Source of the DNA: an uncultured delta proteobacterium
GTDB lineage: Bacteria; Desulfobacterota; BSN033; UBA1163
Direction of reading: 5' to 3'
Assembly (NCBI GenBank): GCA_963731045.1
Contig: CAVSVC010000022.1
Location: 2,113-66,112 of the forward strand
DNA length: 64,000 nt
A model generated the notes under the pieces. The model saw only the letters and a list, made by a program, of their open reading frames with translations. It was not told where the DNA came from and made no database searches. Below are positions 24,162 to 42,527 of this stretch, in pieces. The position numbers and the translations under genes are program-made. Numbering within the stretch: the first letter of the stretch is position 1; every line of letters starts with the position of its first letter.

Positions 24162-25029
24162 GCTTAAATAATCCTTGCGGTTTCAGGAGCAGGACCAGCA
24201 CAAGGGTGCAGAAGGCCACGGCGAGGGACCAGTGTGCCCCCAGGAAAAAACCTGCAAATGTTTCTGCGACTCCGAGGATGAGTCCGCCCACAAGGGAACC
24301 GATCAGACTCCCGGACCCTCCGAGCATGACGATAGCGATATAACGGATCGTCAATGGCAGGCCGATGAAAGGGCCGATGGTAAAGAGCAGGACGTAAAAA
24401 AGGCCGGCGGTTCCGGCCAGTCCGATCGCAATCCCAAAAACCAACGTGACAATTCGGGGAACATTAATTCCGACCACCATGGCCCCTTCTCGGTTCTGAA
24501 GAATGGCCCGAATTGCTTTTCCGGCAAAAGATTTCTTCAGGTAGAAATGAAGGAAGATCGTGAGGGCGATGATGAGCACCAGAATGGAGAGTCGAAGGGA
24601 TGACACAACCACACCGCCCACATTGAAGGCAGGCATGGAATAGGAGACTCCTTTCACCGTCGGCCCCCAGATAAAGGACGTCGTATCTTCAATCGCTGTT
24701 GCGATGCCTACGGTGACGACAATCGATGAGAAGAGGAGTTGTCTCGGAGGACGATTGAGGATCGGCTTTATGAAGGCCTTCTGGTAAACCGCCCCGATCA
24801 GGATGAAAAGAGGGATGACCATGATGAGAATCAGGAAGGGGTTCAACCCGGTCACGGCAAAAAGGATATAGGTGACCAGTCCCCCCAGCATGAGAAACTC
24901 CCCGTGCGTAATGTTGAGGACGTCAGCGATACAGAAGATCAGGGAGAGCCCGAAGGCGGCAAGGGCATAGGTGCCGCCTTGGAGCACTCCCGCCAAAACC
25001 AATTGGATAAGAACCGTCGGCGTCAGCAT
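24154..25029 (-). CDS. livH: Branched-chain-amino-acid-type ABC transporter permease (LivH family)
   Basis: Intact 291-aa ORF with LQGGTYALAAFGLSLIF..NITHGEFLMLG and RAILQNREGA. Confidence 0.9.
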   Translation of the reverse strand: MLTPTVLIQLVLAGVLQGGTYALAAFGLSLIFCIADVLNITHGEFLMLGGLVTYILFAVTGLNPFLILIMVIPLFILIGAVYQKAFIKPILNRPPRQLLFSSIVVTVGIATAIEDTTSFIWGPTVKGVSYSMPAFNVGGVVVSSLRLSILVLIIALTIFLHFYLKKSFAGKAIRAILQNREGAMVVGINVPRIVTLVFGIAIGLAGTAGLFYVLLFTIGPFIGLPLTIRYIAIVMLGGSGSLIGSLVGGLILGVAETFAGFFLGAHWSLAVAFCTLVLVLLLKPQGLFKHV

Positions 25030-25182
25030 CCGTATTCCTTGATCCGTGAGAGCGTCAAGCGTAAGGCGCGAGGGGTTTACCCCTTACGCCTCACGACTGA
25101 CGCCTTACGGACGAGGGTTTTGATATTCGAATTTCGAAATGTTCCCAACCTCTAAATCATGTGTCGTGATTTCGACACAGCG

Positions 25183-26376
25183 TTAGGGTTGTGGATTCGG
25201 GTAAACATGCTTATGGCTTGCAAACTTCTTTGGAGAAATCAGGTAATACTTCCCATCAATATACTGCGCTGCAAACTGTTTAAAGGATCCATGCCCCAGG
25301 GTCTGGTCGATAACCATGGGCCCCAGGATCGATTCAAAATTGACCGCCCAGGCTGATTTCAGGAGATCTTCGGGTTTCAAAGAGTCGGCTTTTTCAATCG
25401 CCACCTCTGCAAGTTCCAAGGCCACATAATGGATGCCAACATCCAGGTATTGCTCCGTGTCGATATTGGTCTCCTTCAGGATCTCCTGGAACTTCTTCAG
25501 GTTGCCGTAAGGGAGTCCTGGCAGCCAGTGATGTGCGCCCGTCACGTAATTGGCGTCCTTTCCCAGAGCACTGGAGAAAGAAATGTCGAAATGGGTAAAG
25601 TGCCACTCCCGAGGTTTGAGTCCAAATTCTTTGGCCTGTTTTTTGAAAGTGACGCCAAAGGGAGTGAAGGAAGAGACGTAAATAATATCCGGGTCGGCAG
25701 CCTTCAACTTCAAAAGAATGGAGGTGAAGTCCGTCGTGGCTGCCGGAGCAATCTCTTTAAACGCGGTCTTGTAGCCGCGTTTTTCAGCGTTTGGGATTGC
25801 TCCCTCGTAAACCTCTCGGGTATGCGGGGTATCTTCGGCCACATAGCCGATCGTCTTCACTTGTTTCTCCTCATCGAGAAGATCGAAGTAATTGTCTTCC
25901 CAATGGGTGGAAAGCTGCTGTACCCCGACAAACCACTTAAACCCTCGATTGAAGACCGCCGGCGTATTGGCAGTGGCCAACACCATGGGAACATGATACT
26001 TCTCAGGGACAGAGGTCACCGGAAATGTAATCGGTGTTGACTTGGGACCGATCAGGATGTCGCACTTATCGACCGTCACCAGTCGCTCATAGAACTTCAC
26101 CGCCGTTGCCTGATCGCTCTTGTCGTCATAGACGATGGTTCTAACAGGAAGCTTCTTGTTGTAGGCCTTCACATAAAGCCCGCCTTGCTTCTTGTTCACA
26201 TAATTCTCCCAGGCCTTAATCATACGGTCGAAAGGACCAACATCCGCGGCAAATTTTCCAGTGAGGCAGAGTGTCATTCCGACGACGATCTCTTTTTTCT
26301 CCTGAGCCACTCCAGCCTGAATGGTCCCCAGGAAGACGGCCATGGCCAAAATAGCAACCCATCCGATCCTCTTCAT
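25183..26376 (-). CDS. Liv-type (type I periplasmic binding fold) ABC substrate-binding protein
   Basis: AAAGGAGGAG precedes ATG 26376. The signal is MKRIGWVAILAMAVFLGTIQAGVA. The mature part reads EKKEIVVGMTLCLTGKFA... It is a close paralog of 58597..59784. Confidence 0.9.
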   Translation of the reverse strand: MKRIGWVAILAMAVFLGTIQAGVAQEKKEIVVGMTLCLTGKFAADVGPFDRMIKAWENYVNKKQGGLYVKAYNKKLPVRTIVYDDKSDQATAVKFYERLVTVDKCDILIGPKSTPITFPVTSVPEKYHVPMVLATANTPAVFNRGFKWFVGVQQLSTHWEDNYFDLLDEEKQVKTIGYVAEDTPHTREVYEGAIPNAEKRGYKTAFKEIAPAATTDFTSILLKLKAADPDIIYVSSFTPFGVTFKKQAKEFGLKPREWHFTHFDISFSSALGKDANYVTGAHHWLPGLPYGNLKKFQEILKETNIDTEQYLDVGIHYVALELAEVAIEKADSLKPEDLLKSAWAVNFESILGPMVIDQTLGHGSFKQFAAQYIDGKYYLISPKKFASHKHVYPNPQP

Positions 26377-26401
26377 AGATCTCCTCCTTTTCTGATGTGG
26401 G

Positions 26402-27862
26402 TTAGAGCCCGAGGTAAGCCTTCCGGATGCTCTCATCCTTCAGGAGTTCCGCGCTCTTGCCCTCTCTGACAACCCGGCCATTTTCCAGTACGTAGGTACG
26501 GTCCGAGATCTCCATGGCAAGCCGGGCATTCTGCTCCACCAGGAAGACCGTCACTTCCTGCCGATTGATCTTCTGTATCGTACGGAAGAGTTCCGCCACA
26601 ACAAGGGGTGCGAGCCCCATGGAGGGCTCGTCGATCAGCACGAGTTTCGGAATGGACATCAAGCCCCTTCCCACCGTGACCATCTGTTGTTCTCCGCCGC
26701 TCAGCGTTCCCGCGATCTGCAGTTTTCTTTCTCTAAGCCGGGGAAAAAGCTCGAAAACCCACTCGAGCGTTTCCACAATCTTCTGCCTTGCCCTGGGAGC
26801 ATAGGCCCCGAGTTCCAGGTTCTCAAGAACGGTCATCCCGGGAAAAAGCTTCCTCCCCTCCGGAATGAGGGTGACCCCCTTTTCGATGATCCTGTGTGGC
26901 GGCAGCCGATGAATCTGTTCGTTCAGAAACTGAATGGCGCCCGACGTGGGATGAAGCATTCCGGCGATCGTATTGATCATCGTCGTCTTGCCCGACCCGT
27001 TTGATCCGACCATGGTCACCATCTCTTTCGAAGAGATGGCAAGAGAGGTTTCCCAGAGGACCTGAATATCCCCATAATGGGTTGAAATCTTATCCACCTG
27101 GAGCATCATCTCAAGCGACCTGTTTCCCCCCTGGGCTCCCCCTTCGGCTCCGAGGTATGCCTCAATCACATCCTTGTTCTTGGAAACTTCTTCAGGTTTC
27201 CCCTGGGCAATCAGTTCACCGAAGTTGAGCACCAGGATCCGGTCTGAAAGGCCCATGACCGCTTTCATGATGTGCTCAATCATAAACACGGTGATTCCCC
27301 TCTTCTGAATCCTTCGAACCAGACTCATCATCGCTTCTGTTTCTGTCGGGTTAAGTCCGGATATCGCCTCATCGAGCAGAAGCACTTTGGGGCGGGTCGC
27401 CAATGCCCTGGCGATCTCCAGTTGTTTCCTCCCCACCAGAGTGAGGTTCTTAGCGGGAATATTCGCCTTCGGGGAGAGGCCCGTCAATTCCAGCAGATCA
27501 AGGCCTCTTTTTTCAATTTCACGGGCCGTTTCCGCTTTCGGCTTCCCAAAGTGGAGCCCGACAAGGATATTTTCATAGACGGTGAGACTCGAAAAAGGCC
27601 GGACGAGTTGGTAGGTCCTTGAGATCCCTTTATGGCAGATATCCCGGGCGCCTTGAGATGCAATTTCTTCTCCGTTGAATCGGATAGAACCCGATGAGGG
27701 AGGAAATGTTCCCGCGATAATGTTGAAGAGAGTTGTTTTGCCGGCCCCATTGGGTCCGATGAGGCCGAGGATCTCCCCGGACTCCATGGTGAACGAGATG
27801 TCATAAAGCGCCCTGAGGCCGCCGAAGTATCTCGTAACCCCTGTTACTTCAATAATGCTCAT
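26402..27862 (-). CDS. Fused LivG-LivF ABC ATPase (two nucleotide-binding domains in one 486-aa ORF)
   Basis: Domain 1 has GPNGAGKTT and ..LLLDEAISGL and ends EAYLGAEGGAQGGNRSLEM. Domain 2 starts MLQVDKISTHYG and has GSNGSGKTT, LSGGEQQM and LIDEPS. There is no stop or frame change at the junction (about 27100-27130). Confidence 0.85.
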   Translation of the reverse strand: MSIIEVTGVTRYFGGLRALYDISFTMESGEILGLIGPNGAGKTTLFNIIAGTFPPSSGSIRFNGEEIASQGARDICHKGISRTYQLVRPFSSLTVYENILVGLHFGKPKAETAREIEKRGLDLLELTGLSPKANIPAKNLTLVGRKQLEIARALATRPKVLLLDEAISGLNPTETEAMMSLVRRIQKRGITVFMIEHIMKAVMGLSDRILVLNFGELIAQGKPEEVSKNKDVIEAYLGAEGGAQGGNRSLEMMLQVDKISTHYGDIQVLWETSLAISSKEMVTMVGSNGSGKTTMINTIAGMLHPTSGAIQFLNEQIHRLPPHRIIEKGVTLIPEGRKLFPGMTVLENLELGAYAPRARQKIVETLEWVFELFPRLRERKLQIAGTLSGGEQQMVTVGRGLMSIPKLVLIDEPSMGLAPLVVAELFRTIQKINRQEVTVFLVEQNARLAMEISDRTYVLENGRVVREGKSAELLKDESIRKAYLGL

Positions 27863-27956
27863 TCAACCTTATTCCGAGAAGAAAGATTATCGTGCTCACA
27901 GAGCTCTTTAATAACCGTGAAACTTTTAACAAATGCGAGTGGCAATGTCAAGGAAA

Positions 27957-28919
27957 TCAGCGGGTGACCGAAACCCCCGTCAGGGAACAGTATGTCCGGC
28001 TCCGGCGCAGGACGCCGACGATCCCCTGCGGTGACAGCAGCATGATTCCCACGAGAATGGCGCCCTGGATCAGGAAACTGTAACCGGCGTACTTTGCGAG
28101 CAGGAAATAGAGGACGACGACAACCACCGTTCCAAAGATCGGGCCCTCCTCGGTGCGCGTCCCCCCGATGACGGCGGCCAGAAGCAATGTCATGGTCCAC
28201 GTGACATTGAAGGTGGCCGAAGGTTCGATGTATCCCTGGTAGAGGTAGAAGACCGCCCCTGCCAGTCCTGTAATCACCGCAGAGATGACGAAGGTGTACA
28301 GCTTCAACTTGAAGACGTTGATCCCGCAACCGGCCGCCGCTCTCTCATTGTCTCGGATGGCCGCGAGACCCAGCCCCAGATTCGATCTGAGAACAAAACG
28401 GACCAGGAAGACGGACCCGATACCGACGATCAAGGCAAACCAGTAGATATGGGCCATGGAGACCTCCGCGATCCCCTTGATCATATACCCCGCCCCGCCG
28501 CCGTCCATCTCCCCTCCCACAGGCTTCCAGAGATAGAAGAGGATCCTCAGGGCCTCGGGAACGACGAGCGTTCCGATGGCAAAATAGATCCCGCTGAGTC
28601 TGAACACGGGGAAAGAGATCACGAGAGCAAAGAGACCGGCCACGACCGCCCCCGCAAGAAGTCCGATCCACCAGGGGATTCCAACCCATGTGGTAATCGC
28701 CAGGGTATACCCTGCGAGCCCGAGGAAGGCAGGTTGACAGAGCGAGGTCAGCCCTGAATAGCCTGCGAGCAGGTTCCACATATTTGCCATGGCCAGATAG
28801 ATCGAAAAGAGGAAGACGTAGAGCAACCAGCTGCGCGGAGCCCCGATCAATGGAAACAGGACAAGGGCGATGCCGATCACGATCAAAGGCATGAATTTCG
28901 TCTTGAATCGAAATCTCAT
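27957..28919 (-). CDS. livM: ABC transporter permease (LivM family), second system
   Basis: Intact 320-aa polytopic ORF with NLLAGYSGLTSLCQPAFLGLAGY and LAAIRDNERAA. Confidence 0.9.
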   Translation of the reverse strand: MRFRFKTKFMPLIVIGIALVLFPLIGAPRSWLLYVFLFSIYLAMANMWNLLAGYSGLTSLCQPAFLGLAGYTLAITTWVGIPWWIGLLAGAVVAGLFALVISFPVFRLSGIYFAIGTLVVPEALRILFYLWKPVGGEMDGGGAGYMIKGIAEVSMAHIYWFALIVGIGSVFLVRFVLRSNLGLGLAAIRDNERAAAGCGINVFKLKLYTFVISAVITGLAGAVFYLYQGYIEPSATFNVTWTMTLLLAAVIGGTRTEEGPIFGTVVVVVLYFLLAKYAGYSFLIQGAILVGIMLLSPQGIVGVLRRSRTYCSLTGVSVTR

Positions 28920-28926
28920 TGCTCTC

Positions 28927-29790
28927 CTAACGGCCGAAGAGACCTTGCGGCCTGATCGCCAGTATCACCAGGACGATCATATACACGATCAGCATCTGCG
29001 TGGCCGAACCAAAGAAGTATCCTCCCATGGTTTGAACGACCCCCAGTGTCACCCCGCCGATAAAGGTTCCGAGCATACTGCCCAGACCTCCGATGATCAC
29101 GGTTCCAAAGGCGATCGTGAGCAGAGACGTCCCGGACGTGGGGGTAAAGGGAAACGTCATTCCCAGAAAAACCCCCGCGACGGCAGCGGAAACCATCGCA
29201 ATGGCGAAGGCATAGCCATAGATGCGGTTTGTGTTGATTCCCATCAGAAGGGCGGCCCTCCGGTCCTGAGAGGCAGCCATGATGGCTTTTCCAAGATAGG
29301 TCCGGCTGAGAAACTCGCGGAGAAGGATCATGACGACGATGCCGGCAATGAAGTCCAGCAGATAAGAGATCGGAAACTGAAGGCTTCCCAGGCTGAAACT
29401 GGTCAGGGAATAGGATGTGTTTAAACCTCTCGACAGCGGGGTCCACAGGATCTGGTTGGTGTTCTGAATGATCAGGGAAATGCCGAAGGCGATGATCAGC
29501 GGCGCCTCTGCGGAAATGGCAAAGGCACGGCCCATCAGGTACTTCTGGATGATAAACCCCAGGGCAAACATTCCGGGGATGCAGATGACCAGACTGACGA
29601 TGGGATCGAGCCCCGGGTAGGACATCAGGCCGAACGCGGCGTAACTCCCCAGGATCACCAGGTCGCCGTGGGCAAGATTGATCAATCTCATGACCCCGAA
29701 AACAAGGGAGAGACCCATGGCAATGAGCGCGTACAGGCCGCCCAGAAGAATCCCCATGATCAATGGAGTGAGGATGTCGCCTGAACCCAT
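28927..29790 (-). CDS. livH: ABC transporter permease (LivH family), second system
   Basis: Intact 287-aa ORF with LLGGLYALIAMGLSLVFGVMRLINLAHGD and MAASQDRRAA. Confidence 0.9.
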   Translation of the reverse strand: MGSGDILTPLIMGILLGGLYALIAMGLSLVFGVMRLINLAHGDLVILGSYAAFGLMSYPGLDPIVSLVICIPGMFALGFIIQKYLMGRAFAISAEAPLIIAFGISLIIQNTNQILWTPLSRGLNTSYSLTSFSLGSLQFPISYLLDFIAGIVVMILLREFLSRTYLGKAIMAASQDRRAALLMGINTNRIYGYAFAIAMVSAAVAGVFLGMTFPFTPTSGTSLLTIAFGTVIIGGLGSMLGTFIGGVTLGVVQTMGGYFFGSATQMLIVYMIVLVILAIRPQGLFGR

Positions 29791-29842
29791 TTACGCCTTT
29801 CCAGGATGACGGATTAGCATTTTGTTAATTTAATGATTGTTT

Positions 29843-29990
29843 GCAGGCTGCTCAAAAATGCCCAGATGCAAGGCGCCCGAAATCCTGAGGAGTGAGACAC
29901 CTTAAGGTACCTCACGGTACGGTACCTTAAGGTACCGCAGCGACGAAGGATGAGGGCAACGATGCAGATGGACGTTTTTCAGCAGCCTGC
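29843..29990 (+). repeat. About 148-bp nested-palindromic intergenic repeat, copy A (MITE/REP-like)
   Basis: Imperfect terminal inverted repeats: gcaggctgctcaaaaatgcccagatgca ... tgcagatggacgtttttcagcagcctgc. The GGTACCTTAAGGTACC core is itself a palindrome. Copies B (53510-53656, inverted) and C (58062-58209) are near-identical. This copy abuts the livF stop codon. Confidence 0.85.
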
Positions 29991-30709
29991 TACACGCCGA
30001 AGTAGGCCTTTCTCACCTGATCTTCCTCCCGGAGGTCCGAGGAGACGCCGCTCAGAACAACACGCCCGGTTTCAAGGATGTAGGCCCTATCGGCCTCCTG
30101 AAGGGTTCTCCGAACGTTCTGCTCTACAAAGAGGATCGTAATCCCTCTCTCCCGGATTTCCTTCAGCGCCCGAAACAGCTCGTTAATCACGATCGGAGCC
30201 AGGCCGAGAGACATCTCGTCAATGAGCATCATCTTCGGATCGGCCATCAGTCCTCTGCCGATCACGAGCATCTGCTGTTCTCCTCCGCTGAGCGTCTTTG
30301 CGGTCTGTTTCCGCCTCTCTTTCAGGAGCGGGAAGTGTTCGTAGACCTTCTCCAGGTTCTCTTCCTTCTTGCTTCGTGCCTTCCGGTTGTAGGACCCGAT
30401 GATGAGATTGTCCAAAACCGTTACATCCGGGAAGATCCGCCTTCCCTCCGGAATCTGCGTGATCCCGTTTTCCACAATCTCGTAGGGGTCCATCCGGGTA
30501 ATCTCCCGCCCGTCGAATTCAATGGTTCCTTTAGCAGGGTGGAGTAACCCCGAGATCGTATCGAGAAGGGTTGATTTTCCTGAGGTGTTGGCCCCGATCA
30601 GTGCCAGCATCTCCCCTTCCATTACTCGGAGCGATACATCCCAGAGTGCCTGAAAGGTGCCGTGGAAGACATCGATGTGATTCACAAGGAGAATGGGTTG
30701 CTGCGACAT
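29990..30709 (-). CDS. livF: ABC transporter ATPase (LivF family)
   Basis: Intact 239-aa ORF with GANTSGKST, LSGGEQQML and MLIDEMS. Confidence 0.9.
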   Translation of the reverse strand: MSQQPILLVNHIDVFHGTFQALWDVSLRVMEGEMLALIGANTSGKSTLLDTISGLLHPAKGTIEFDGREITRMDPYEIVENGITQIPEGRRIFPDVTVLDNLIIGSYNRKARSKKEENLEKVYEHFPLLKERRKQTAKTLSGGEQQMLVIGRGLMADPKMMLIDEMSLGLAPIVINELFRALKEIRERGITILFVEQNVRRTLQEADRAYILETGRVVLSGVSSDLREEDQVRKAYFGV

Positions 30710-30722
30710 TTTTCCCTATCAC

Positions 30723-31469
30723 TCAGGCCCCGAAGTAGGCATCGATCACCCTGCTGTCATTCATGATGGCCGTCGGCTCGCCTTCGGCGATCTTCATCCC
30801 TTTGTCGATGACGACGATCCGATCGACGGCGTTGACCATCACTTTCATGACGTGTTCGACAAGGATCATGGTGATCCCCATCTTTCTAATCTCTTTGATC
30901 GTCGCAAGGATTCTGGGGATCTCGATCTCAGTAGACCCTGCCGCCACTTCGTCGAGCAGCAGCAACTCGGGTTTTCGTGCAAGGGCTCTTGCGAGTTCGA
31001 GTTTCTTCAGGGATAAGATCGGAAGATTCCCGGCAAGGGTATCCTTCTTCTCGGAGAGATTGACCAGGTCAAAGATCTTTTCGTCTTCCAGGTCAGCCGC
31101 AGTCCTCCTCAATTGTCTCCCGAATACTGCGGAAACCAGCAGATTCTCGCGTACGGAGAGCGTCACAAAGGGCTGCGGGATCTGATAGGTCCTGGCAATG
31201 CCGAGATGGCAGACTTCGTGGACTGCACAGCGTGTGATATTACGTCCTTGAAACGTAACGGTCCCGTTGTCCGGAGTGTACTCACCGGCGATAATGTTGA
31301 GCAGAGTCGTCTTCCCCGCGCCGTTGGGTCCCATCAACCCGATGACTTCGCCGGGATAAACATCAAAACCGACGTTTTTCAACGCCACCAGGCCCCCGAA
31401 GCGTTTCGTAATACCCTTCACGCTCAGAATCGGCTCGCCCATCTTCTCCTTTGAACGTTCAGCACTCAT
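30723..31469 (-). CDS. livG: ABC transporter ATPase (LivG family)
   Basis: Intact 248-aa ORF with GPNGAGKTT, LKKLELARALA and LLLDEVAAG. An alternative start is Met10 at 31442. Confidence 0.9.
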   Translation of the reverse strand: MSAERSKEKMGEPILSVKGITKRFGGLVALKNVGFDVYPGEVIGLMGPNGAGKTTLLNIIAGEYTPDNGTVTFQGRNITRCAVHEVCHLGIARTYQIPQPFVTLSVRENLLVSAVFGRQLRRTAADLEDEKIFDLVNLSEKKDTLAGNLPILSLKKLELARALARKPELLLLDEVAAGSTEIEIPRILATIKEIRKMGITMILVEHVMKVMVNAVDRIVVIDKGMKIAEGEPTAIMNDSRVIDAYFGA

Positions 31470-31513
31470 GAAGTTATGAAGTTGGGAGTTGGAGTTAGGA
31501 GGTTAGGAAGTTA
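31470..31513. repeat. Heptamer-periodic degenerate tandem repeat (gaagtta tgaagtt gggagtt ggagtta ggaggtta ggaagtta)
   Basis: Read directly from the sequence. It fills the grdA-livG spacer. Purine-rich 7-periodicity continues to about 31600 across the grdA 3' end. Confidence 0.55.
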
Positions 31514-31584
31514 AGCTTCAATAAGTTCGAATGCATCTCATCTCTCATCCTCTGAGCCTTCATCTTCTAAGCTTCTCATCTTCG

Positions 31585-32073
31585 TTATCTTCTTTTCCTT
31601 GAGCCTTCAGCCTTCGCTTTCCTTGCCCGCACCCTGGTAAGCGTCTCAGAGATCTTATCCACATCCAGGGCGATCTCCATAAGCTTCAGATGCTCCTCAT
31701 AGCATGCAGGGTCGATCTGGGCCTTCATCTCAGGCTCGATGATGTGATATACCGGGAGCCCCAGTGCGACTCCGGCCAGCGGTCCTGCCCAGGTCGGGTC
31801 TCCATTCGTTACCGTCTCAGCATAGAGCTCGGCGCTATCGGCATCCGGAGCCCCGAGGACAACGATGAGATCTTCCTTGCCGTACTGCTCTGCGACCTTC
31901 TTGATGCTTTCCTGACCTTCCAGGTCAAGGGCGCCTGCCGCAGTTCAGACAAAACACTGTGTCTGTACCAGCAGAGGCTCGGCTCCCGCACTCTGAACAC
32001 AGGCCGCGATCGCCGGTCCCTGAATCCCATCCCGTTCCCCCAGGATGATCACTTTCTTCCCTTTCAGTTTCAT
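31585..32073 (-). CDS. grdA: Glycine/sarcosine/betaine reductase complex selenoprotein A (GrdA), with in-frame UGA = Sec43
   Basis: Absent from the ORF track because it is split by TGA at 31945-31947. GGGAGG precedes ATG 32073. My translation is [101 protein letters not shown].., 162 codons ending at TAA 31585-31587. CFVUTAAGA is the GrdA active-site signature. Confidence 0.85.
31911..31929 (-). promoter_or_regulatory. Candidate SECIS hairpin for grdA
   Basis: The mRNA reads C-U-UGACCU-GGA-AGGUCA-G-G, an 8-bp stem including one G.U pair, starting 15 nt 3' of the UGA. Confidence 0.35.
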
Positions 32074-32181
32074 TGCCCATCCTCCCGTCTCAGACCCATT
32101 CCAACGTCCAGTTCCCGGGGACTTAAACGGATTCGATTTCCCTTTAGGTCGTGGGAGCTACTCTGGAATTTGGTGCTTTTC

Positions 32182-32511
32182 TTATTGCCCAACAATTTCT
32201 TTGATCGCTTCTTCAATATCCTTCTTGGTAAGCTGTTCGCCGGACAGACGCTTGACCTCAACCCCATTTCTGTAGAAGAGAAAGGAAGGGAGACCCAGGA
32301 CCCGCAGCTTTGCACAGAGCATGCGGTTCCCCGCAGCGGCATTCAGCTTTGTGACCTTGATTTTACCGGAGTACTCCTGCTCAAGGTGCTCAATGCTCGG
32401 CATCAGGGCCAGGCATGGAGCGCACTGGGGGCCCCAGAAATCTACAAGAACAGGCAGTTCCGATTGGAGAACTTCCGTTTCATAGTTGTCTTTATGAACG
32501 TCCACAGCCAT
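32182..32511 (-). CDS. trx: Thioredoxin with a CAPC redox motif
   Basis: Intact 109-aa ORF with VLVDFWGPQCAPCLALMP...LGLPSFLFYRNG. The ATG overlaps the grdC stop as TAATG. Confidence 0.9.
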   Translation of the reverse strand: MAVDVHKDNYETEVLQSELPVLVDFWGPQCAPCLALMPSIEHLEQEYSGKIKVTKLNAAAGNRMLCAKLRVLGLPSFLFYRNGVEVKRLSGEQLTKKDIEEAIKEIVGQ

Positions 32512-33992
32512 TATTCGTTACCCCCCTCGTTCTTTTCGAGCAAGATCGATATTCCGTCGGAAAGCTGCGTCAACCGTCCGAGAAAGAGGCTCCCCTTGGC
32601 CAGAAGCATCGTATTTCTCAGCTTTCCCGACTTGATATTCCGGATGGCATGACCGAGATACGGTATGGCCGAAGCAATATGCCCCTGGGTTGGAGAAAAA
32701 CCGGGCATCCCGTGGGTCTTCACAAACTGGTCCAGCTCGCTCTTCTGAATCTCATTTCGCAGGACGGCAAAGCTGCCGATCGTCCGGTAATTCGTGCGGG
32801 GAACATTTCCACTCCCCTGCGGCTCCGTCACTTCCGGATTGTGCATCTCTGTCGCATATTTATCGATCTGGGTCAGCTTAAGTCCAAGCCGGTCGAGGGG
32901 CTCGACGACCAGCTTCTCGAGGATCGCCTGCTGAGCGGAGCCTGAGCTGATTTCATGTTTTCCAATAGAATCCAGACGGATGACCGGGCTTCTTCCGTCA
33001 TCCTGAGTCACCCAGACAGCGATTCCCGCCAGAAGATCCTCCAGGACCGGCATATCATGCCGAACGTGCCCCTGGAATTTCATCCCCAACTTCGCCAGGG
33101 ATCCCCCCGCCACCATCACCACGTTGCTGAAAACGCCGGAGGAGACCAATCCCGCCGCCATCATCAGGGCGTGAACAGGCGCGCAGCAGAAGGCCTTGAC
33201 GTCGGAACCCGTCGCCCGGGTGCAACCGCACAGCTGCCCGATTGCCTTGGCCAGGTTTCCTCCTCCGCGGTTATAACGGTCTCCGATGGCTTCCTCTCCA
33301 TACCCGATGAGATAATCGATATCTTTTGCCGAACCGGTCTTTGAAATGAGGTTTCGCAATGCCATCACCCCGGAGGCTCTTGAGGATAGATTTTCGAGCA
33401 TGATGGAGGGAATAAGGTTTTCATCCTCCTCGGCGCCATCCCCCTGCGGTCTCTTCACGCATCCTACGAGGCGGTTCCCCTGGACATAGAGGGGCAGGAC
33501 ATCTCCTTGCTCCAGCTTCTTTTCCAGCCCCTCTTTGGAAACGCCTTTGCCGAGTTTCTGAATATCCTCCTCCACAAAAAGCGGGTGAACCCTGAGCATG
33601 GCCACCACACCGTCCAGAAAACTCTCCTCGAGTGTGATCAGGCCGAACTCATCACAGAGCTTCAACACCCCGTAGAACTCCTCCTCCGGCATGATCTCCC
33701 CGAACTCGCCCCACCGCGAAGCATTCGGAACAGGATTCCGATACCACGGAGAAGGCGTGTTCCACAATTCGTCGGGATCAAGATTTCCAATGAAAACCTG
33801 ATTCGGCGGATAAGGAACGGCCTGCTCGAAAGGTCTTAAATGGTTGAGGATCGGCTGCAGTTGTGATGGATCATGTCTGATCTCCCGAGAGGGCTTTGAC
33901 CCGTACCGGATCAGGCTCGGCACGTGGGCAAGAAAATAAGAAACCCCTGTAATGACCGGGAGCATCCGTTTATCCGACGAACGATGGGACAT
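32511..33992 (-). CDS. grdC: Glycine/sarcosine/betaine reductase component C beta subunit (GrdC)
   Basis: Intact 493-aa ORF with blocks I recognise from clostridial GrdC: VPYPPNQVFIGNL.PDEL, RLVGCVKR, NRGGGNLAKAIG, ATGSDVKAFCCAPVHAL, EMHNPEVTEPQGSGNVPRTNY, AKGSLFLGRLTQLSDGISI. Confidence 0.85.
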   Translation of the reverse strand: MSHRSSDKRMLPVITGVSYFLAHVPSLIRYGSKPSREIRHDPSQLQPILNHLRPFEQAVPYPPNQVFIGNLDPDELWNTPSPWYRNPVPNASRWGEFGEIMPEEEFYGVLKLCDEFGLITLEESFLDGVVAMLRVHPLFVEEDIQKLGKGVSKEGLEKKLEQGDVLPLYVQGNRLVGCVKRPQGDGAEEDENLIPSIMLENLSSRASGVMALRNLISKTGSAKDIDYLIGYGEEAIGDRYNRGGGNLAKAIGQLCGCTRATGSDVKAFCCAPVHALMMAAGLVSSGVFSNVVMVAGGSLAKLGMKFQGHVRHDMPVLEDLLAGIAVWVTQDDGRSPVIRLDSIGKHEISSGSAQQAILEKLVVEPLDRLGLKLTQIDKYATEMHNPEVTEPQGSGNVPRTNYRTIGSFAVLRNEIQKSELDQFVKTHGMPGFSPTQGHIASAIPYLGHAIRNIKSGKLRNTMLLAKGSLFLGRLTQLSDGISILLEKNEGGNE

Positions 33993-34010
33993 AAGACGGC
34001 AATTCCTTTC

Positions 34011-34166
34011 TTCAACGATTATTGAGTCAATGAGTTATTGAGTGATATTAAGTGAATGAAAACCCTTATTGACTCTCATTAACTCGATATGGGAATTCAA
34101 TTACCTCATTAACTCTATTCATCTAGTTCATGGATGTCCTTCTTCTGATCACTGATCACTGGTTAC
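34011..34166. repeat. Intergenic block of heptamer-periodic repeats with dyad symmetry (attgagt caatgag ttattga.. / ..ctcattaactc.. / tctgatc actgatc actggtt actgatc)
   Basis: Read directly from the sequence. It fills most of the 193-bp spacer between the grdB-like gene and grdC. Confidence 0.55.
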
Positions 34167-34185
34167 TGATCACTCGTTTTTGCCT

Positions 34186-35487
34186 TTAGCACAGGATCCT
34201 CTGTTCCTCGATCTCGGTCTGCAGGGCTTTCAACGCCTTTTCAACAATCGAACGGCGCAGCTTCTTCTCTTCCGGTCCGGGAAGATCTGCATTGCCCAGC
34301 GGATTGACGATCTTCTGGCCGGGAAGAATCCTCATGGAACCCACCATCTGGGCAACGGGGGTGATCGCACAGAGGTGAACGGTGGGAATCCCGACCCTCT
34401 CTATCTCCTTTGTGAGCGTTGCACCGCAACGCGTGCTCGTCCCTCAGGTGGAGGTCAGGATCACCCCGGAAACTCCATCCGCCTTCAACTCCCCGGCAAT
34501 CCGTTCTCCCAGTTTTCTCATGACCTCTACGATATTCGCAACACCTGTTGTGCTGTAAAACCTGTCATGGAGCTTCCCGATCAGCCCTTCCCGTTCGAGA
34601 TCCCTGAGAACGTCCACAGGGACCAACCGGTTCGGGTCCTGCCTCACGAAGATCGAGTCATAGCCTTCATGACTGACTTCATAATCTTCGGGATGGAGTC
34701 TTTCGACATCCTTAATATCATATCTCCCAAAACGCGTTGCCGTCCGGATCTCAATCCTGTCCGGATTCCCTTTCGGAACCAGCCCGCCATCCGTCACCAG
34801 CGCAATCTTCGCCTTCCCGATCTCTTTGATGGCCGGGGCCGGCTTCACCCGGTCGTACGTGGGCCGAGGGACTTCGGATTCATACGGCTCTCCCCGCAGT
34901 TTGCACAGCAGCAGGTCCAGAACGCGTTCCGCCCCTGTTCTGTCTGAGATTTCATTCACCAGCAACCCACGGGGGAAGTATCCCTCTTCAGAAGGTTTTC
35001 CTATCCTCTCTTTGGCCACAAGCTTCCGGACAAGGGCCACGATCTTGCCGACAGCCTCAGCCATTCCCCTCGCGGAGTCCACGGTTTGAATAATATAGAC
35101 CTCGTTCCGGTACATGTCGACGCTGGGGTTTTCCTGATACATTCCGGTGACGGCCGGGATTCCCAGTTGCTCCTGGACGATCTTGCAAACGGCGCCGCAG
35201 GCGATGCCGTATCGTCCCGCGTTAAAGGCCGGTCCCGCAATGACGACGTCGGGCCCATAGGAATCAATCATGCTTCTTACTTCCGCCGAGGCCCCTTCAA
35301 TATTTTCCGCAAAATAGTTGTCGCCGCAGATCACGGTAGCCACCACCTGTCCTTCTTTTCCCAAGGCGGCCTGGATAGCTCTGCCCGGCCCCACGGCTCC
35401 TTCGGTCACCCGGGGAGGCAGGTGCGCCTTATCTTCTCCGCCAATCCCGCCGAAAAACTGATTGACATAATGGACCACTCTGATCAT
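34186..35487 (-). CDS. Selenoprotein B family reductase subunit (GrdB/GrdF/GrdH-like), with in-frame UGA = Sec348
   Basis: Track ORF 34444..35487 (MIRVVHYVNQFFGGIGGEDKA...GVILTST) stops at TGA. The same frame continues GTSTRCGATLTKEIERVGIPTVHLC...QRILC to TAA 34186-34188, giving 433 codons. Confidence 0.85.
34416..34432 (-). promoter_or_regulatory. SECIS-like stem-loop for the grdB-like gene
   Basis: The mRNA reads GCGUUGC-GGU-GCAACGC, a perfect 7-bp stem with a GGU loop (17 nt). It begins exactly 11 nt after the UGA at 34446-34444. Confidence 0.55.
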
Positions 35488-35611
35488 TTAAACTCTCCTG
35501 ATCTCCACCCCCATCCCGACTGAGGGCACTAAGCGATGCGTTGCCGATTCACTTCCGATTTTGTTCTAACGCTATGCCCTATGCCCATGTTGCGCTATGC
35601 GGGTTTTCCCA

Positions 35612-36914
35612 TCAATACCGGACTGCCTTCAGTTTTGAACTCCCGAGCTGGCACTGTGAACCCTTAATCCAGCGGATGGACCTCATCATCTCGCCGTCAA
35701 CCGGCGCCCCCTCCTGCGACGGATCGGGTCTTCCGATGATCCTGTCCACAGCAGGCAGCAGCACATCCATGAAAGGGACCCCCATGCTCACGATGGCATC
35801 CACTTCCGGCATGCTGAAGATCGTGGTGGCCCCGAATTTCGCATCGCTGATATCCGCCCCCATGTGGAGCATGGCAATGGCCGTTTTGATCCCGAGCTGT
35901 TCACAACGCTGGGCAGTCCTTGCCATGGTCAGTTCAGGGGCGCCCCCTCCCGTCTTCGTCAGGACCGCACCCTCTGCGCCGACAACGTATCCGGCCAGAT
36001 TTGCCGAGATGTTCGAAACCCGCTCAATGTCCGCCACATTGTTCGGTGCAAGGGTAATGATCACCCCCGCAAAACGAAAGTTCTCTTCCATGTCTTCTGT
36101 AGAGTTCTCTGATGATCGGGTGATTCTGGATCTGATAGGTTTGCACGTTCAACGCCGGCAGGGCGGATGTGATTGCCCCATCCAATACCTCGTTGGGATG
36201 AACCAGGGTGGGAACCATATCCGGGACATTCCTACCGTACAGCACAGGCTCTCCCGGGATGGGTTCGAATTGCAGGGTCTGAATCTGAAAGATGTAGACG
36301 ATCCGGGGAAGCTTTCCGGAAACCTCCACACTCGCCGTCAGCGGAAGAAGCTCAAACACCTCGGTCTCATCAGGCGTAACGCCCTTCCCCGCCTTTGCAA
36401 GATAGGCGGATGCCTTCAGTCCGGCGACCTTCATCGCAGCCATGTATTCCTGCGTGGTCACACCCTGTGAAGGAGTTCCCAGCAGAACAATATTCCGGGT
36501 CTTTCCAAAGGTGCTCACCTCCGCGCCCGGACCGGACATATCGATGATCTCCCCGTTAGGGTATGAACTCGTGCTGCCTTCACGCCTCTCCCGGTAGTCG
36601 CTCAAGACGACGGCAGTTCCCTTTAAGACACACGTGCTTCCTGTGCCCGCGGCTGCCTGCCCTCCTACGGCCCCGGGAAAATCCTGATCTCCGTTGCTTG
36701 TTTTTGCTCTTGGTTCGATCACATCCAGCACCTTCAGGATGCGACATTTCTCCCCGGGCTGAGCCAGATCAATCTCAATGGATTGAAGCCTCTGATCCTC
36801 CAGCAGGAGGTTCTGAAGCTCACTGCGGTTGATAGATAAGACCCCGTCGCTAACGGCAGTTCTGTCTCCGAATCGAATCCCTCGAATCTTCAGAATATTC
36901 AGTTCAAGTCTCAT
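35612..36914 (-). pseudogene. GrdE/GrdG/GrdI-like substrate-binding proprotein of reductase component B, one frameshift
   Basis: Track ORF 36024..36977 (from Met22: MRLELNILKIRGIRFGDRT..IDLAQPGEKCRILKVLDVIEPRAK..HPNEVLDGAITS..HPIIRELYRRHG) joins ORF 35612..36091 (NFRFAGVIITLAPNNVADIERVSN..GAEGAVLTKTGGGAPE..) at about 36080. Confidence 0.8.
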
Positions 36915-37092
36915 CCAATGATGCCTTTCGAAGAGAAGGTTTCGTCCAACGGCCATGGGACGACACCCGTCACTCATTCGGTTAGGTCTTTCGGTTCCAA
37001 AAGCTCACGTTGCCGTTTCCGCCAAACGAAACGGGCTCCGTAGCCATAGCCCTAACCGCCCCCTGGGGGCCGGCGCCCCCGGGGGAGAAGTC

Positions 37093-38436
37093 TCATTCAT
37101 ACGGAATGGGAAAGATGAACTGGGCTTCCGGCTTGACGAAGCTGTGCTTGGAGCTGACGATTCTCAATTCCCACTTGTGCGGTTTGTCCACCTTTCGCCA
37201 CTGACCGAAGCTCAGCGGGATGAGGTTGAACTGGTTCGAGTCAAATTTCACCCGCGCGTTGATCGTCATGAGGTCCGTGCTTTCCAGGGCTTTGTTCACC
37301 CCGTCGGTGCTGAGTGTCCCTGCCCTCTCAATCGCATCCGCCAGCACCTGGATCACATAATACCCCAGACCGATATTGTCGTTCAAGGTCTGGCCGGTAT
37401 CCTTGGTCCACTTCTCCGCCAGGGATTGAGCCGTCGTGCTCCCGACGCCCTTCGTCACAAAAGACGGGTTCCACTTGATCTCCAGACCGATGCCCAGCGG
37501 GAGGTCCCCTCCCCAGGACGCGACATCGATGTAATTTGCAGGGGCTTTCCCGCAGAAGACGGCCTTGGGTTTGAAGCCGAGTGAGCGGGCCTGTTTCCAG
37601 AGGGCCCCGAACTGCGGGGCAGCACAGTTCCCCCAGAGCACCTCCACCCCGTCCGCCTTCCACTTCGAAATGATGGAGGAGAAGTCCGTCGTCTCTCCCG
37701 GGAAGAGGCCCAGTTTCTGTTCGATACCGGAAACAAAGTAGCCTTTCTCTTTCAGGGCCGTCGGGAAGAGCGAATACCAGGCCACACCATCCGGATCATT
37801 CGAAGAAAAGACGCCCACTTTCTTGTTGGTCTTATCGGCGATCTGGTCCAGGGTGGGCAGCCAGGTGTCCAGGATCGTAAACCCCGGCTGTTTATACCGG
37901 AAATCCCCGGGTTGTGCGCCGGCGGCAATCGAAAAACCGAAAGCCCAGGTGTTCTTCCAACCCGGCGATGCATTCTTCCGCATGGCCAGCCAGGGTTCCA
38001 GAACCGCGGCGTGGGCAAGGTGAACCACGTTGTATCTCTGGGCCATGGTGGCTGCCAGGCTGTGCATCGGGGGAGGTTCATTTCCGGTAACCAGGAAATT
38101 GACCTTCTGCCCCACGATCATCTGTTCAGCAAGGGCCCCGGCCTTCTGGGGGTTGCTCTCCGTATTCGCGAAGGTGATCTCGAGGGGGATCTTTCTACCG
38201 AACTCCTTGACCATCACTCCGCCCTGTTTGTTGATATCTTCCACCGCTGTTTTCGCACCCCACGATTGCCCCTGGCCAAACCCTGCAAACATCCCGGTCA
38301 GGGATGCGGGCGAACCGATCAGGATCTTGTCAGGCCCCTTTCCGGTTGACTGCGCCGACACCTGTCCTCCGAGCATCAATCCCAACATGAGGACGACCGA
38401 TAGAAGAACGACCCTTCTTTTCTCCATCTTTTTCAT
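37093..38436 (-). CDS. Liv-type ABC substrate-binding protein (orphan, next to the Grd genes)
   Basis: Intact 447-aa ORF. The signal is MKKMEKRRVVLLSVVLMLGLMLGGQVSA. A type I PBP-like body follows (ILIGSPASLTGMFAGFGQG..AVEDINKQGG). Confidence 0.85.
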   Translation of the reverse strand: MKKMEKRRVVLLSVVLMLGLMLGGQVSAQSTGKGPDKILIGSPASLTGMFAGFGQGQSWGAKTAVEDINKQGGVMVKEFGRKIPLEITFANTESNPQKAGALAEQMIVGQKVNFLVTGNEPPPMHSLAATMAQRYNVVHLAHAAVLEPWLAMRKNASPGWKNTWAFGFSIAAGAQPGDFRYKQPGFTILDTWLPTLDQIADKTNKKVGVFSSNDPDGVAWYSLFPTALKEKGYFVSGIEQKLGLFPGETTDFSSIISKWKADGVEVLWGNCAAPQFGALWKQARSLGFKPKAVFCGKAPANYIDVASWGGDLPLGIGLEIKWNPSFVTKGVGSTTAQSLAEKWTKDTGQTLNDNIGLGYYVIQVLADAIERAGTLSTDGVNKALESTDLMTINARVKFDSNQFNLIPLSFGQWRKVDKPHKWELRIVSSKHSFVKPEAQFIFPIPYE

Positions 38437-38619
38437 ACCTCCTTTTGTAGAATCATCGGGATTGCATTCGTTAGGATCTCACAAGTTATATGGCACCGAT
38501 CGTATCCTCTACTCGTTCGAAAAAGGAAGTTCGTCTACCGTCAGGGTTAAGAGCTTCTGGCTCTACCTCGGGCAGGTGCATCGGCACGTTGTACCCTTCG
38601 GCAGGGGCACCTCTTTCTT

Positions 38620-40450
38620 CTACGGGATTTCGCCTTTATCCGCCTTGTCGGCCTTCAGTTTCTTTCGTAAGGCCGTCGTCGCCTTAGGATCCACTTCAGA
38701 TCCGTTCCCTTCTTGAACACAACACCATATGCCTTGTTCGCCTTTTCAGGGGAGATATACCGATTGAGGACATCCCACCGGACCTTCTGGACATCCCGCT
38801 GCAGGGGATCTCCGACACCGCCGCCTCCGCCCGATTTGCTCCAGAGGATATCGCCGGGTTGAACGTACTGAACGTCATTGCAGCGCAGCTTTTCTTTCTT
38901 TCCTTTCCGGATGATGCCCAGCTGGTGTTTCTTTCCTTCGGTCCCTCCCAGCAATCCCAGGCGCCGAACTTCTCTCCGTCGGAATTGCCCGTCATCACGA
39001 CACAATCATGGGCCTGCCAGACCTTGCGATCGTAGGTATTCAGGATCTCCCAGTGGACACCCGTTGCCGCCCCGCCATTTCCCGTCACCTGCTGAGTCCG
39101 TGATGAACTCGTGACGCAACCATCGATACGGAGTCTCCCATTCCTCCGGTTCTATCGGCGCCCTCAGAGACCCGCCCGCTCCGAGAACCCAGCAGAGTCC
39201 ATCCCAGCCGTCGTAGCCATAGATGGCCCCCATCGAACCATCCCCGTGAAAGGGGGCCGTCCAGTAAAGCTGGGGGGATTTGGTTCGCGGGATCAACGAG
39301 GTCCCGACGCCTCCCGGTGATAATGGGATTCAGGTGCCGCGCCCAGAGGGCGGAAGTATCCTTCGGAACCACCTGGCCCAGGGCCACCTGGACACATTCC
39401 GTAACATGCGTCCCCAGCGTGGGGGCCTGGGCCCCGCTGGTTGCCGGATAAATCGGGTCGAGGACCGATCCCTCCTTGGTTAGAATCGTGAGGCAATTCA
39501 TCAACCCCTGGTTCCGCGGGGTTTGCGGAGGAAGGGACCATGCCACTGCAGTCACGATGGCTGCCCGGGTCTGGCCCTGTGGGCAATTGATAAAATCAAC
39601 CTGGGCGTCGCTCTCCCTAAAGTCCAAGATCAGTTGCCCCTCCTCGGGCTTGACGGTCATGGTCAAGCCTCACCCAGACCGGCTTATCCACGGTTCCGTC
39701 CCAGTCCGCAGCCCGTTCGGCCCGGTAGGTACCCGCCCGCCACGTCGAAATGACCTTCCTCACCGATTCCTCCGTCCGGCTTGACGATCTCGTTGCAGGC
39801 CTCCAGCACCGTCTCCTTTCCGTAACTCTTCACCAGCTCGAGCAACCTCTTCTCGGCCATCTTCATGGAGGCATAGGTCAGCAGGCAGTCGGCACGGACC
39901 ATGGTGGATCCCCTCGAACGTTGCGCAGGATGACTGACAGGACCTTTTCATCAATCTTCCCCCGCTCGATCAGCTTCACGGGCGGAATCATGATCCCCTC
40001 CCCATGGCAGTCATAGGTCCGGGGATAATAGCAGCCCTGGTACGAGCCGCCCGCATCGTACTGATGGGTTCTCATGAAATGATAGAACACCAGTTCCCCT
40101 TCAAAGAAGATGGGCCGAATGAAGGAGAAATCCGGGGCATGGCCGAACTTCACGATAAAGGGGTCGTTGGCCACGATGAAGTCATCCTCGTGGATATTCT
40201 CCCGGCCGATATAATCCAGCATCCCCTTCAGACAGACATCCGACCCGGCGGTGTGGACGGGCATCCAGTTGCCGATGGTAATGGTCCGCTCATTCCGGTC
40301 AAACAGGGCCGTGCCAATGTCCCGGATATGGGCCGTTGCAAAGGAGAAGCACTGACGGAATAGCCTGAACCCGAGTTCCTGATTCTGGGAATTCAAGCGG
40401 CCTTCGATGATCGATAGCGTCAAGGGATCAATGGGTTTGCTCGTGCTCAT
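38620..40450 (-). pseudogene. hyuB: Hydantoinase B / oxoprolinase family subunit (HyuB), at least five frameshifts
   Basis: Starts MSTSKPIDPLTLSIIEGRLNS..RDIGTALFD. Later blocks fall in shifting frames: MVRADCLLTYASMKMAEKRLLEL, TVKPEEGQLILDFRESDAQV, CPQGQTRAAIV, YGYDGWDG, DSAGDGKWRGG.G, SGGGGGVGDPLQRD, ending ..KADKGEIP* at 38620. Confidence 0.8.
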
Positions 40451-42527
40451 GATGACCTCCTTATGCTCATGATATAGTTATGATAGGCATCGACCGTCAG
40501 TTCGGTTCCCTTCGGTACGACGATGGTCGTCGTCGGATCCTCCACGATCGCCGGCCCATCGATCACGTTCCCATGCTTCAGCCGATTCGCATCGTAACAG
40601 GGTGTTTCGGCGAATCCCCCAAGTTCTTTAAAGTAGACCTGCCTCTTCCTTTTGAAAGCCCCTGAGGCATCTCTTCCCATGTCCGGCTGTTTGATCAGCT
40701 CAACCGGACGCCTCACGCCGATCGCCCTGACCTTCAGCGTCGAGATGGCCACCGCCATGGCCGGGTCGGACCACCCGTAGATCGCCTGGTGTCTTGCGTG
40801 GAATTCCGCTGATCAAATCCTTCAGGGTCTGATCCGTAAAGGGTTCTCCTCTCCGGTTTTCCGGCAGGAAGATGACGATATCACGAAGTTGTCCGAGGTA
40901 TCGCATCTCAGCGCCCCGCACCAGTTTCATATCTCTCTCCGGGGAGGCCCTGTTTCGCCAGGGTATCGACCCCTTCGCTTTCCAGCGAGTCATACCAGCC
41001 CTTCATATCCTCTACACGAAGTTGATCTTCGCCCCGGTAGATACAGAGGTTCAGAATATATTCGTAGTTGGCCAGCGCCGCTCCAAGGGCGCAGAAGGCC
41101 GCAGCCTGTCTCGGAATGTAGATCTGCGAGATCCCCAGGCGGGATGCGATCGCAGCGGCATGGACCGGACCGGCCCCTCCGCCGGCAATCAGGGTAAAGT
41201 CCCGCGGATCGAGCCCCCTTTCCACCGCACTGAGAAAGATCCCCTGAGCCATGTTGTCCTCAACGAGAGCGGCAACGGCATGGGCAGCGGAAACCACATC
41301 CAGATTCAATGGCTTTGCAACCTTCTTCTCCATCGCATCCTTGGCCAACCCGGCATCCAGTGTGATGGTCCCACCGAGGAAAAAGTCAGCGGGAATGTAT
41401 CCCAGAATCACATCCGCATCCGTGACCGTCGGATCCTGGCCGCCCTTCCGGTAGCACGCCGGTCCGGGATCGGCCCCGGCGCTCGACGGACCCACCTGAA
41501 GGATGTTTCGAGCGTCGATTCTGGCAATGCTTCCCCCACCCGCCCCGATGCTGCTCACGTCCACGGACTCCAGGGCGTTGATGAAATCGCCTACCCTCAT
41601 TTCCGGGGTGACATGGATGGTGGCCCCCGGAAGCATACTCATATCAAAGGTGGTTCCCCCCATGTCGGCGACGATCACATTCTTAAACCCGCACAGCGTT
41701 GCCAGGAACCGTCCGAGCAAGGGCCCGGCAGCAGGACCCGAGCCAATGAGGAGAGCGGGGTTGTCCAGGCACAACTCCGGAGAGGCTACCCCGCCGATAC
41801 ACGTCGTAAACAGGTAGGTCCCTGCGAACTGACCGCACTTCAGCTCTTCACTCAGACTCTCGATGAAACGGGCCACCACGGGTTTCACGGATCCCGCAAT
41901 CATGGCGGTGCTCAGGCGGTCCCACTCCATCCAGCGCCGCAGGATATGGGATGAGAGCACTACATTCGGGTACTCTTTCTTTATGATCTCCCCTGCCTTT
42001 TCCTCATGCGCCGGGTTGATGTAGGAGTGAAGAAAGCAGACGACAGGCACCTCGACGCCCTGCTGTTTGGCTTTCTTGACCGCGTCGCGCACATCCTTTT
42101 CGTTGAGCGGGGTCACAATCTCTCCGTTGAACTGGATCCGTTCCTCGACTCCGAAACGCAGATAGCGCGGAATAAAACTCTCCGGTGCGGGTAGTTTGAG
42201 ATTGTAGATTTCATCCTTGGGAATCCGCCGGCCCAATTCCGGGATATCCCTGAAACCCTTGGTGTAGATCAGGCAGCACTTTGCCCCTTTCTTCTCCACC
42301 ACCGTGTTTGTCGGAAACGTCGTGCCGATCACGATGGTCGTCGTATCTTTCAGCAGGTCCTGCGTCGTACACGCGCGCTGCTCGGCAAACCGTTCAATGC
42401 AGCCCATGATGCCGAGGGACGGATTGGCGTGGTCCGTAGGGACTTTCGCCATGAAAATTCGCCGATCGTCGTCTATCAGTATTGCATCCGTAAACGTTCC
42501 ACCGGTGTCCACAACGATTTCGTACAT
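40447..42527 (-). pseudogene. hyuA: Hydantoinase A / oxoprolinase family subunit (HyuA), two frameshifts near the 3' end
   Basis: Track ORF 40908..42527 (MYEIVVDTGGTFTDAIL..ADMGGTTFD..GAGGGSIA) is followed by 40700..40993 and 40447..40758 (..VEDPTTTIVVPKGTELTVD). The stop overlaps the hyuB ATG as ATGA. Confidence 0.85.

Follow-up and report, generated by a model that had tools for sequence, protein, structure and literature searches.

A predicted selenocysteine codon and its conserved hairpin in a selenoprotein B gene of an uncultured delta proteobacterium

Does an in-frame TGA in a glycine-reductase-type gene of an uncultured delta proteobacterium end a short protein, or does it specify selenocysteine (Sec) in a longer one? 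The gene lies in a 64,000-nucleotide stretch of contig CAVSVC010000022.1 (assembly GCA_963731045.1, forward-strand positions 2,113 to 66,112), which was analysed whole and is called the window here; all coordinates are counted from its first letter. On the minus strand, an open reading frame (ORF) of 347 codons runs from an ATG at 35487, which has a GGAG-containing ribosome-binding site on its 5' side, to a TGA at 34444-34446, and its translation ends in ...ADGVSGVILTST. Past the TGA, another 85 sense codons (GTSTRCGATLTKEIERVGIP...QRILC) follow in the same frame before a TAA at 34186-34188; the complete read-through segment is GTSTRCGATLTKEIERVGIPTVHLCAITPVAQMVGSMRILPGQKIVNPLGNADLPGPEEKKLRRSIVEKALKALQTEIEEQRILC. 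A first-pass annotation had taken the TGA to be Sec348 of a 433-residue protein and had placed a selenocysteine insertion sequence (SECIS) hairpin just beyond it. Its coordinates for the ORF, the TGA, the 85-codon extension, the TAA and the hairpin all proved exact when the sequence was read again, and its interpretation is supported by a full-length match to the selenoprotein B profile TIGR01918, by a TGA at the aligned position in 84/84 related genes and by conservation of the SECIS. On this evidence the gene at 34186-35487 very probably encodes a 433-residue selenoprotein B of a glycine-reductase-type (Grd) complex, with the UGA at 34446-34444 decoded as Sec. The features concerned are:

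34186-35487, minus strand: grdB-like selenoprotein B gene, 433 codons plus TAA, predicted Sec at codon 348; matches to Pfam and TIGR01918 profiles
34444-34446, minus strand: in-frame TGA, predicted to be read as selenocysteine U348; motif TST-U-GTSTRCGAT; TGA in 84/84 related genes
34189-34443, minus strand: C-terminal extension of 85 codons, translated only with UGA read-through
34416-34432, minus strand: SECIS apical hairpin GCGUUGC-GGU-GCAACGC, nucleotides 15-31 counted from the U of UGA; perfect 7-bp stem and GGU loop
34406-34443, minus strand: full-length match to Rfam SECIS_4 (RF01990), model positions 1-38, 27.9 bits

To which family does the read-through product belong? Against TIGR01918 (NCBIfam), the subfamily model for GrdB, GrdF, GrdH and PrdB (glycine/betaine/sarcosine/D-proline family reductase selenoprotein B, various_sel_PB), it scores 563 bits where the cutoff is 65.45, residues 3-431 being aligned with profile positions 1-429 of 431. 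The match to Pfam GRDB (PF07355) is 495 bits. The narrower models all score below their cutoffs: 551.1 bits against 602.2 for the GrdB equivalog TIGR01917, 580 against 800 for the sarcosine reductase GrdF model NF040794, and 468 against 775 for the betaine reductase GrdH model NF040795. The earlier assignment to the selenoprotein B family is thus right at the subfamily level and over the full length, short of the GrdB, GrdF and GrdH equivalogs. No PDB entry is related by sequence to the GrdB-like protein. Its redox motif is UxxSxxC (U-G-T-S-T-R-C), with Ser in place of the first Cys, whereas the motif given for GrdB in the literature is UxxCxxC (PMC13188914). The first Cys is also missing from about 23 of the 84 GrdB-type relatives described below, and both Cys are missing from nine; UxxSxxC is the variant of a clade and is compatible with membership of the subfamily. 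The clade lacking both Cys (L047, L050, L052, L055, L059, L063, L069, L073 and L077, with the Sec site near position 7030 in most) comes mostly from Dehalococcoidia/Chloroflexota, with SAR202, Udaeobacter and delta-type metagenome-assembled genomes (MAGs) besides, and carries the motif TST-U-GTSTRSGAA (GTGTRSGAT in L050).

What do related genes have at the aligned codon? Protein matches run to thousands, and almost all of the 120 best that were listed are exactly 347 residues long. Among these is a public entry, P0001, which is 100% identical to the 347-residue product. The expectation that gene callers would truncate this gene is borne out by that entry and by its homologues. A scan with one genome per species gave 80 loci (the L-numbers used here), 79 of which reach the site and hold 84 GrdB-type genes; the nearest, at 73%, 72% and 68%, belong respectively to MAGs of Syntrophorhabdales, of a 'delta proteobacterium' and of Syntrophaceae. 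TGA stands at the aligned position in all 84 of these genes, from 79 genomes, and a Cys codon in none. Wherever enough sequence is available, 75-99 conserved codons without a stop come after the TGA, so orthologues do not end there. The genes come from Firmicutes, Synergistota, Fusobacteriota, Chloroflexota, Binatia, Desulfobacterota-type MAGs and other groups. Compared with L001, the 85 codons of the extension comprise 35 that are identical, 24 that differ synonymously and 26 that differ non-synonymously, a ratio that argues for purifying selection on a translated extension. GrdA and GrdB are known selenoproteins with few or no Cys homologues, in Deltaproteobacteria too (Syntrophus aciditrophicus, Desulfuromonas acetoxidans; PMC1794560).

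TGA is also the ordinary stop of 16 of the 32 other confident genes in the window. The codon is therefore not reassigned genome-wide, and a global reassignment of UGA (genetic codes 4 or 25) is ruled out.

If UGA is decoded as Sec, a SECIS element should lie close behind it. The spacer between UGA and hairpin is 11 nt, GGGACGAGCAC. Perfect hairpins with a 7-bp stem and a 3-nt loop are not unusual in themselves, there being eight in the window, about the chance expectation; one at +11 is found at a single TGA out of the 2,374 such triplets on both strands. In E. coli fdhF, the essential upper stem-loop, of 17 nt, is described as spanning nt 15-31 at a distance of 11 nt from the UGA; its loop contains G23 and U24, and U17 is bulged (Liu et al. 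1998, as summarised in PMC8659212). The window hairpin agrees in its 17-nt size, its position at nt 15-31, its 11-nt spacing and the G23/U24 of its loop, as the first-pass annotation had said of size and spacing; it differs in having no bulged U17 and in its apical loop of 3 nt, that of fdhF being larger, and its cognate SelB would be a different one.

The covariance-model check proposed at the first pass places SECIS_4 at full length on the hairpin region, with 27.9 bits, under the Rfam gathering score of 38. The match has a window-wide E-value of 0.041 and is the sole Rfam match with E<1 in the 64 kb; nothing in the window is at gathering level. In the same register of other grdB genes the model scores 66 bits in Peptostreptococcus, 60 in Peptacetobacter, 51.5 in Peptoniphilus, 48 in a Synergistales genome, 47 in Binatia and 38.1 in a Syntrophaceae MAG, the close relative L004. 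The apical stem-loop of the window, CGUUGC-GGU-GCAACG, is identical to the SECIS_4 consensus, and the register starts 3 nt past the UGA. One of the two outer pairs of the consensus is broken in the window, and the inner helix is longer by one G-C pair, hence its 7 bp. The low score is due to the diverged flanks (Ser/Leu codons for Cys/Met) and the one broken outer pair, not to the core.

Is the hairpin itself under selection? A gap-free alignment of 60 sequences was used, in which columns 15-21 pair with 25-31 (the U of UGA being 1). The 7-bp helix is paired in 92.7% of cells against 85.6% in shuffled controls, and its covariation score is 0.205 against 0.071; for both measures 0/500 shuffles reach the observed value. 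Slid registers of the helix are paired in 21-73%. At pair 18-28, 38 sequences have U-A, 15 have C-G and 2 have A-U, without a single unpaired case. The two sequences with Arg AGA and Ser UCU have A-U in place of C-G at pair 16-30, and pair 19-27, otherwise invariant, flips from U-A to A-U (UGC..GCA to AGC..GCU) in the clade with the motif U-GTSTRSGAA. Codon choice in the stem follows suit. The Ala codon of the 3' arm is GCA in 72/72 genes with UGC and GCU in 9/9 genes with AGC, codons that make up 21% and 31%, respectively, of Ala codons elsewhere in the same extensions; the stem Arg codon is CGU or CGC in 82/84 genes, against 24% of Arg codons elsewhere. In the loop, G23 never varies, and U24 is the most frequent base at its position. 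Conservation and covariation of the hairpin across the 84 homologous genes are far beyond chance. Close homologues with a Cys codon and no conserved hairpin would have pointed the other way; what is found is no Cys in 84 genes and a hairpin kept with compensatory changes.

The surroundings of the gene bear on its function and on whether the cluster still works:

35612-36977, minus strand: grdE/grdI-like partner subunit of protein B, with a Gly_reductase domain, in two ORFs (36024-36977 and 35612-36091)
32511-33992, minus strand: grdC, reductase complex component C, beta subunit (NF040746, 647.5 bits, cutoff 450)
32182-32511, minus strand: thioredoxin (trxA-like) with WGPQCAPC; best match is the clostridial TrxA model, 119 bits, under its cutoff of 140
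31585-32073, minus strand: grdA, selenoprotein A (NF040748, 223.9 bits, cutoff 130)
37093-38436, minus strand: Peripla_BP_6 solute-binding protein (Pfam), directly upstream of the protein-B genes
26402-31469, minus strand: Liv-type ATP-binding cassette (ABC) transporter genes (LivG, LivF, LivH, LivM and a fused LivG-LivF), directly downstream of grdA
23163-26436, minus strand: second binding protein and permeases, beyond the Liv-type genes

The grdA gene, 2.1 kb downstream of the grdB-like gene in the same operon, holds the second in-frame TGA of the window (31942-31944), in the canonical context QCFV-U-TAAG. ORF lists show it only as a 42-residue stub. A hairpin of 8 bp with a GGA loop (31911-31929) lies 15 nt past this TGA; the fold has -25.5 kcal/mol (z = -2.6), and this SECIS has no matching family in Rfam. 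Two canonical selenoprotein genes in a single operon are good indirect grounds for believing that Sec is decoded in the organism. When ORFs in general were scanned for an in-frame TGA, 76 candidates came up, too noisy a result in frameshift-prone sequence of ~55% GC; of them all, only grdB and grdA convince. Separately, the TctA gene at 46666-47844 (minus strand) meets a TGA after 392 residues, corresponding to profile positions 1-379 of 423, and 94 further in-frame codons follow; the homologue in L004 has 502 residues. This TGA is probably a frameshift or truncation rather than a Sec codon.

The partner gene consists of ORFs of 317 and 159 residues that overlap by 68 nt. At the site of autocatalytic cleavage and pyruvoyl formation, classical GrdE (L008, L013) has the sequence SGNCVSACDKN, with the two Cys used in this processing; the partner has SALPALNVQ instead (36135-36185), with no Cys. 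This variant is common to the close relatives L001, L002 and L004, and the distant non-classical (non-Firmicute-type) relatives surveyed all do without the N-C pyruvoyl motif. After repair of the frame, the partner scores 274 bits with the GrdG model (cutoff 780) and 209 bits with FarE, far under cutoff. By the criterion of the processing Cys, the module resembles GrdI and FarE, partner subunits reported to lack it (PMC10838667), and not GrdE or GrdG.

No trxB was identified among the ORFs scanned in the window; grdD or trxB may lie elsewhere in the genome. In L001 and L004 the grdE-grdB pair stands alone, beside transporters or unrelated genes and apart from grdA, grdC and grdD, which agrees with the picture in the literature of several substrate-specific protein-B modules supplying one shared reductase system. 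The window, compared over its interval 31470-38436 with classical clostridial grd loci, has no glycine riboswitch; those loci have one upstream (L008, 2030-2133; L013, 1627-1725; L021, 2217-2319). Elsewhere in the comparison set, Peptoniphilus duerdenii has a tRNA-Sec gene about 3 kb downstream of grdB (L021, 10035-10124), and a Synergistales MAG has a Moco/tungsten riboswitch immediately after it (L028, 7574-7690). About 9 kb from the grd cluster of the window are genes for a pyrogallol-hydroxytransferase-like molybdopterin oxidoreductase and its 4Fe-4S subunit (19509-22838, minus strand). Homologues of this pair (40-59% identity) adjoin a grd cluster in an Actinomycetes MAG (L005, 1011-4320), and the two may be functionally associated.

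Which observations count against decoding of the UGA as Sec, and do they favour another explanation? The SECIS_4 score is one, and another is that a 56-nt fold of the region does not exceed shuffled sequence in stability (z = 0.07), so that thermodynamics gives the hairpin no support; its case rests on position, conservation and covariation. The window also has no tRNA in its 64 kb, its scanned ORFs include no selA, selB or selD, and grdD, which is needed for acetyl-phosphate release, was not found in it when GrdD-containing loci were used as queries. That the TGA is nevertheless a true stop, leaving a 347-residue truncated GrdB-like protein and 85 codons that are an untranslated remnant or a separately initiated small gene, is what the databases imply in listing the shorter product, and a weak match of residues 3-163 to NF041545, a short selenium-free GrdB-related oxidoreductase (102 bits, cutoff 175), could be taken the same way. 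We regard it as extremely improbable. The 85 codons are open and conserved as protein down to relatives at about 46% identity (over the N-terminal 347 residues), synonymous changes in them are in excess, and TIGR01918 covers the extension to position 429 of 431. The earliest in-frame start codon is 33 codons past the TGA, beyond the most conserved segment, GTSTRCGAT, so a separately initiated product would miss that segment and is ruled out. The hairpin could also be a mere by-product of the self-complementary codons for T-R-C-G-A-T, with no function as RNA, given that the stem is made wholly of conserved active-site peptide codons and that its fold energy is unexceptional. This too is very improbable: third positions that are free to change synonymously stay in the pairing state, and paired replacements keep the stem (Arg CGU/Thr ACG to CGC/Ala GCG, Arg AGA with Ser UCU, Cys UGC/GCA to Ser AGC/GCU), so the hairpin is more than a by-product of the peptide.

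A different doubt concerns the cluster and not the codon: the gene could be a selenoprotein gene by descent in an operon that no longer functions in this organism. Relative to the single intact ORF of L001, L002 and L004, a 1-nt insertion near 36080-36092 disrupts the grdE-like gene. Upstream, hyuB (hydantoinase-B/oxoprolinase; 38437-40450, minus strand) is split into at least five frame segments, the adjoining hyuA (40908-42527) being intact, and several other genes of the window are fragmented, with partial profile matches for aconitase, 3HCDH, BKACE, TctC and DctP (partial Pfam matches at 128-775, 1187-1801, 4641-5141, 7338-7880, 16722-17381 and 18437-19312). The broken hyuB and the partial matches suggest indel-rich sequence or pseudogenes, so the cluster could be decaying, or else the sequence carries indel errors; the absence of grdD from the window would fit a cluster out of use. 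Indel errors of the assembly are the likelier of the two because a run of about 12 kb is undamaged, namely grdB-like, grdC, trxA, grdA and ten transporter genes, and scattered single-base frameshifts resemble such errors more than decay confined to an operon. The separation of grdE-grdB from grdA, grdC and grdD in L001 and L004 makes a grdD elsewhere normal. Loss of function is, on balance, unlikely, and we keep to a selenoprotein B gene whose UGA is decoded as Sec.

How would the gene product be made and used? Sec insertion, SelB binding and activity are what we infer, the recruitment steps following the established bacterial Sec pathway. With UGA in the ribosomal A site, the hairpin (nt 15-31, loop G22-G23-U24), at its distance of 11 nt on the 3' side, would recruit SelB-GTP-Sec-tRNA(Sec), and this complex would outcompete release factor 2. 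Sec348 would be the active-site nucleophile of a substrate-specific protein B, whose other component would be the GrdE/GrdI-like product of the gene immediately upstream. By the established Grd scheme, a carboxymethyl-selenoether on protein B would pass to Sec43 of GrdA, GrdC/GrdD would release the carboxymethyl group as acetyl phosphate, and thioredoxin would re-reduce GrdA. Reduction of glycine and sarcosine needs Schiff-base chemistry; since the partner lacks the pyruvoyl-forming Cys and none of the GrdB, GrdF and GrdH equivalogs fits, the substrate is probably neither of these. The combination of a UxxSxxC GrdB-like protein and a Cys-less, presumably unprocessed partner, placed between a Peripla_BP_6/Liv-type ABC importer and grdC-trxA-grdA, makes it conceivable, although we hold this only tentatively and think it doubtful, that the module reduces a substrate other than glycine, sarcosine, betaine and fluoroacetate. 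If so, Grd-type selenoenzymes would gain a new class of substrate, one that feeds substrate-level phosphorylation in syntrophic Desulfobacterota-like organisms.

UGA-encoded Sec, the selenoproteins GrdA and GrdB and the SECIS as an Rfam family are already known, and the mechanism is textbook. What the locus adds is in part a matter of annotation. The public record of the gene is the 347-residue P0001, and hundreds of homologues are recorded likewise, whereas the true product is predicted to have 433 residues and an active-site Sec. Metabolic reconstructions of these uncultured anaerobes that start from truncated entries would as a result miss or mis-score a selenium-dependent, ATP-yielding reductase. 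Mildly novel is the question of the substrate of the non-pyruvoyl, UxxS-type protein-B clade, which is a candidate for finding a new Grd substrate.

The locus resembles the GrdB, GrdF and GrdH systems of Eubacterium acidaminophilum and Clostridium sticklandii in full-length homology, in the Sec codon within TST-U-G, in the position of the SECIS, in the adjacent GrdE-type partner gene and in having grdA, grdC and trxA in the same operon. It differs from them in UxxSxxC, in the lack of an upstream glycine riboswitch and of grdD and trxB nearby, and in its flanking Liv-type ABC genes. With betaine reductase GrdH/GrdI and fluoroacetate reductase FarB/FarE (PMC10838667) it shares a partner without the pyruvoyl Cys and the partial loss of CxxC, but it scores far below the GrdH and FarE cutoffs and has no OpuD/BCCT betaine transporter, no oxalate/formate-type antiporter and no radical-SAM gene like that of the far operon. 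FarB, moreover, lacks both Cys, whereas the protein of the window keeps the second.

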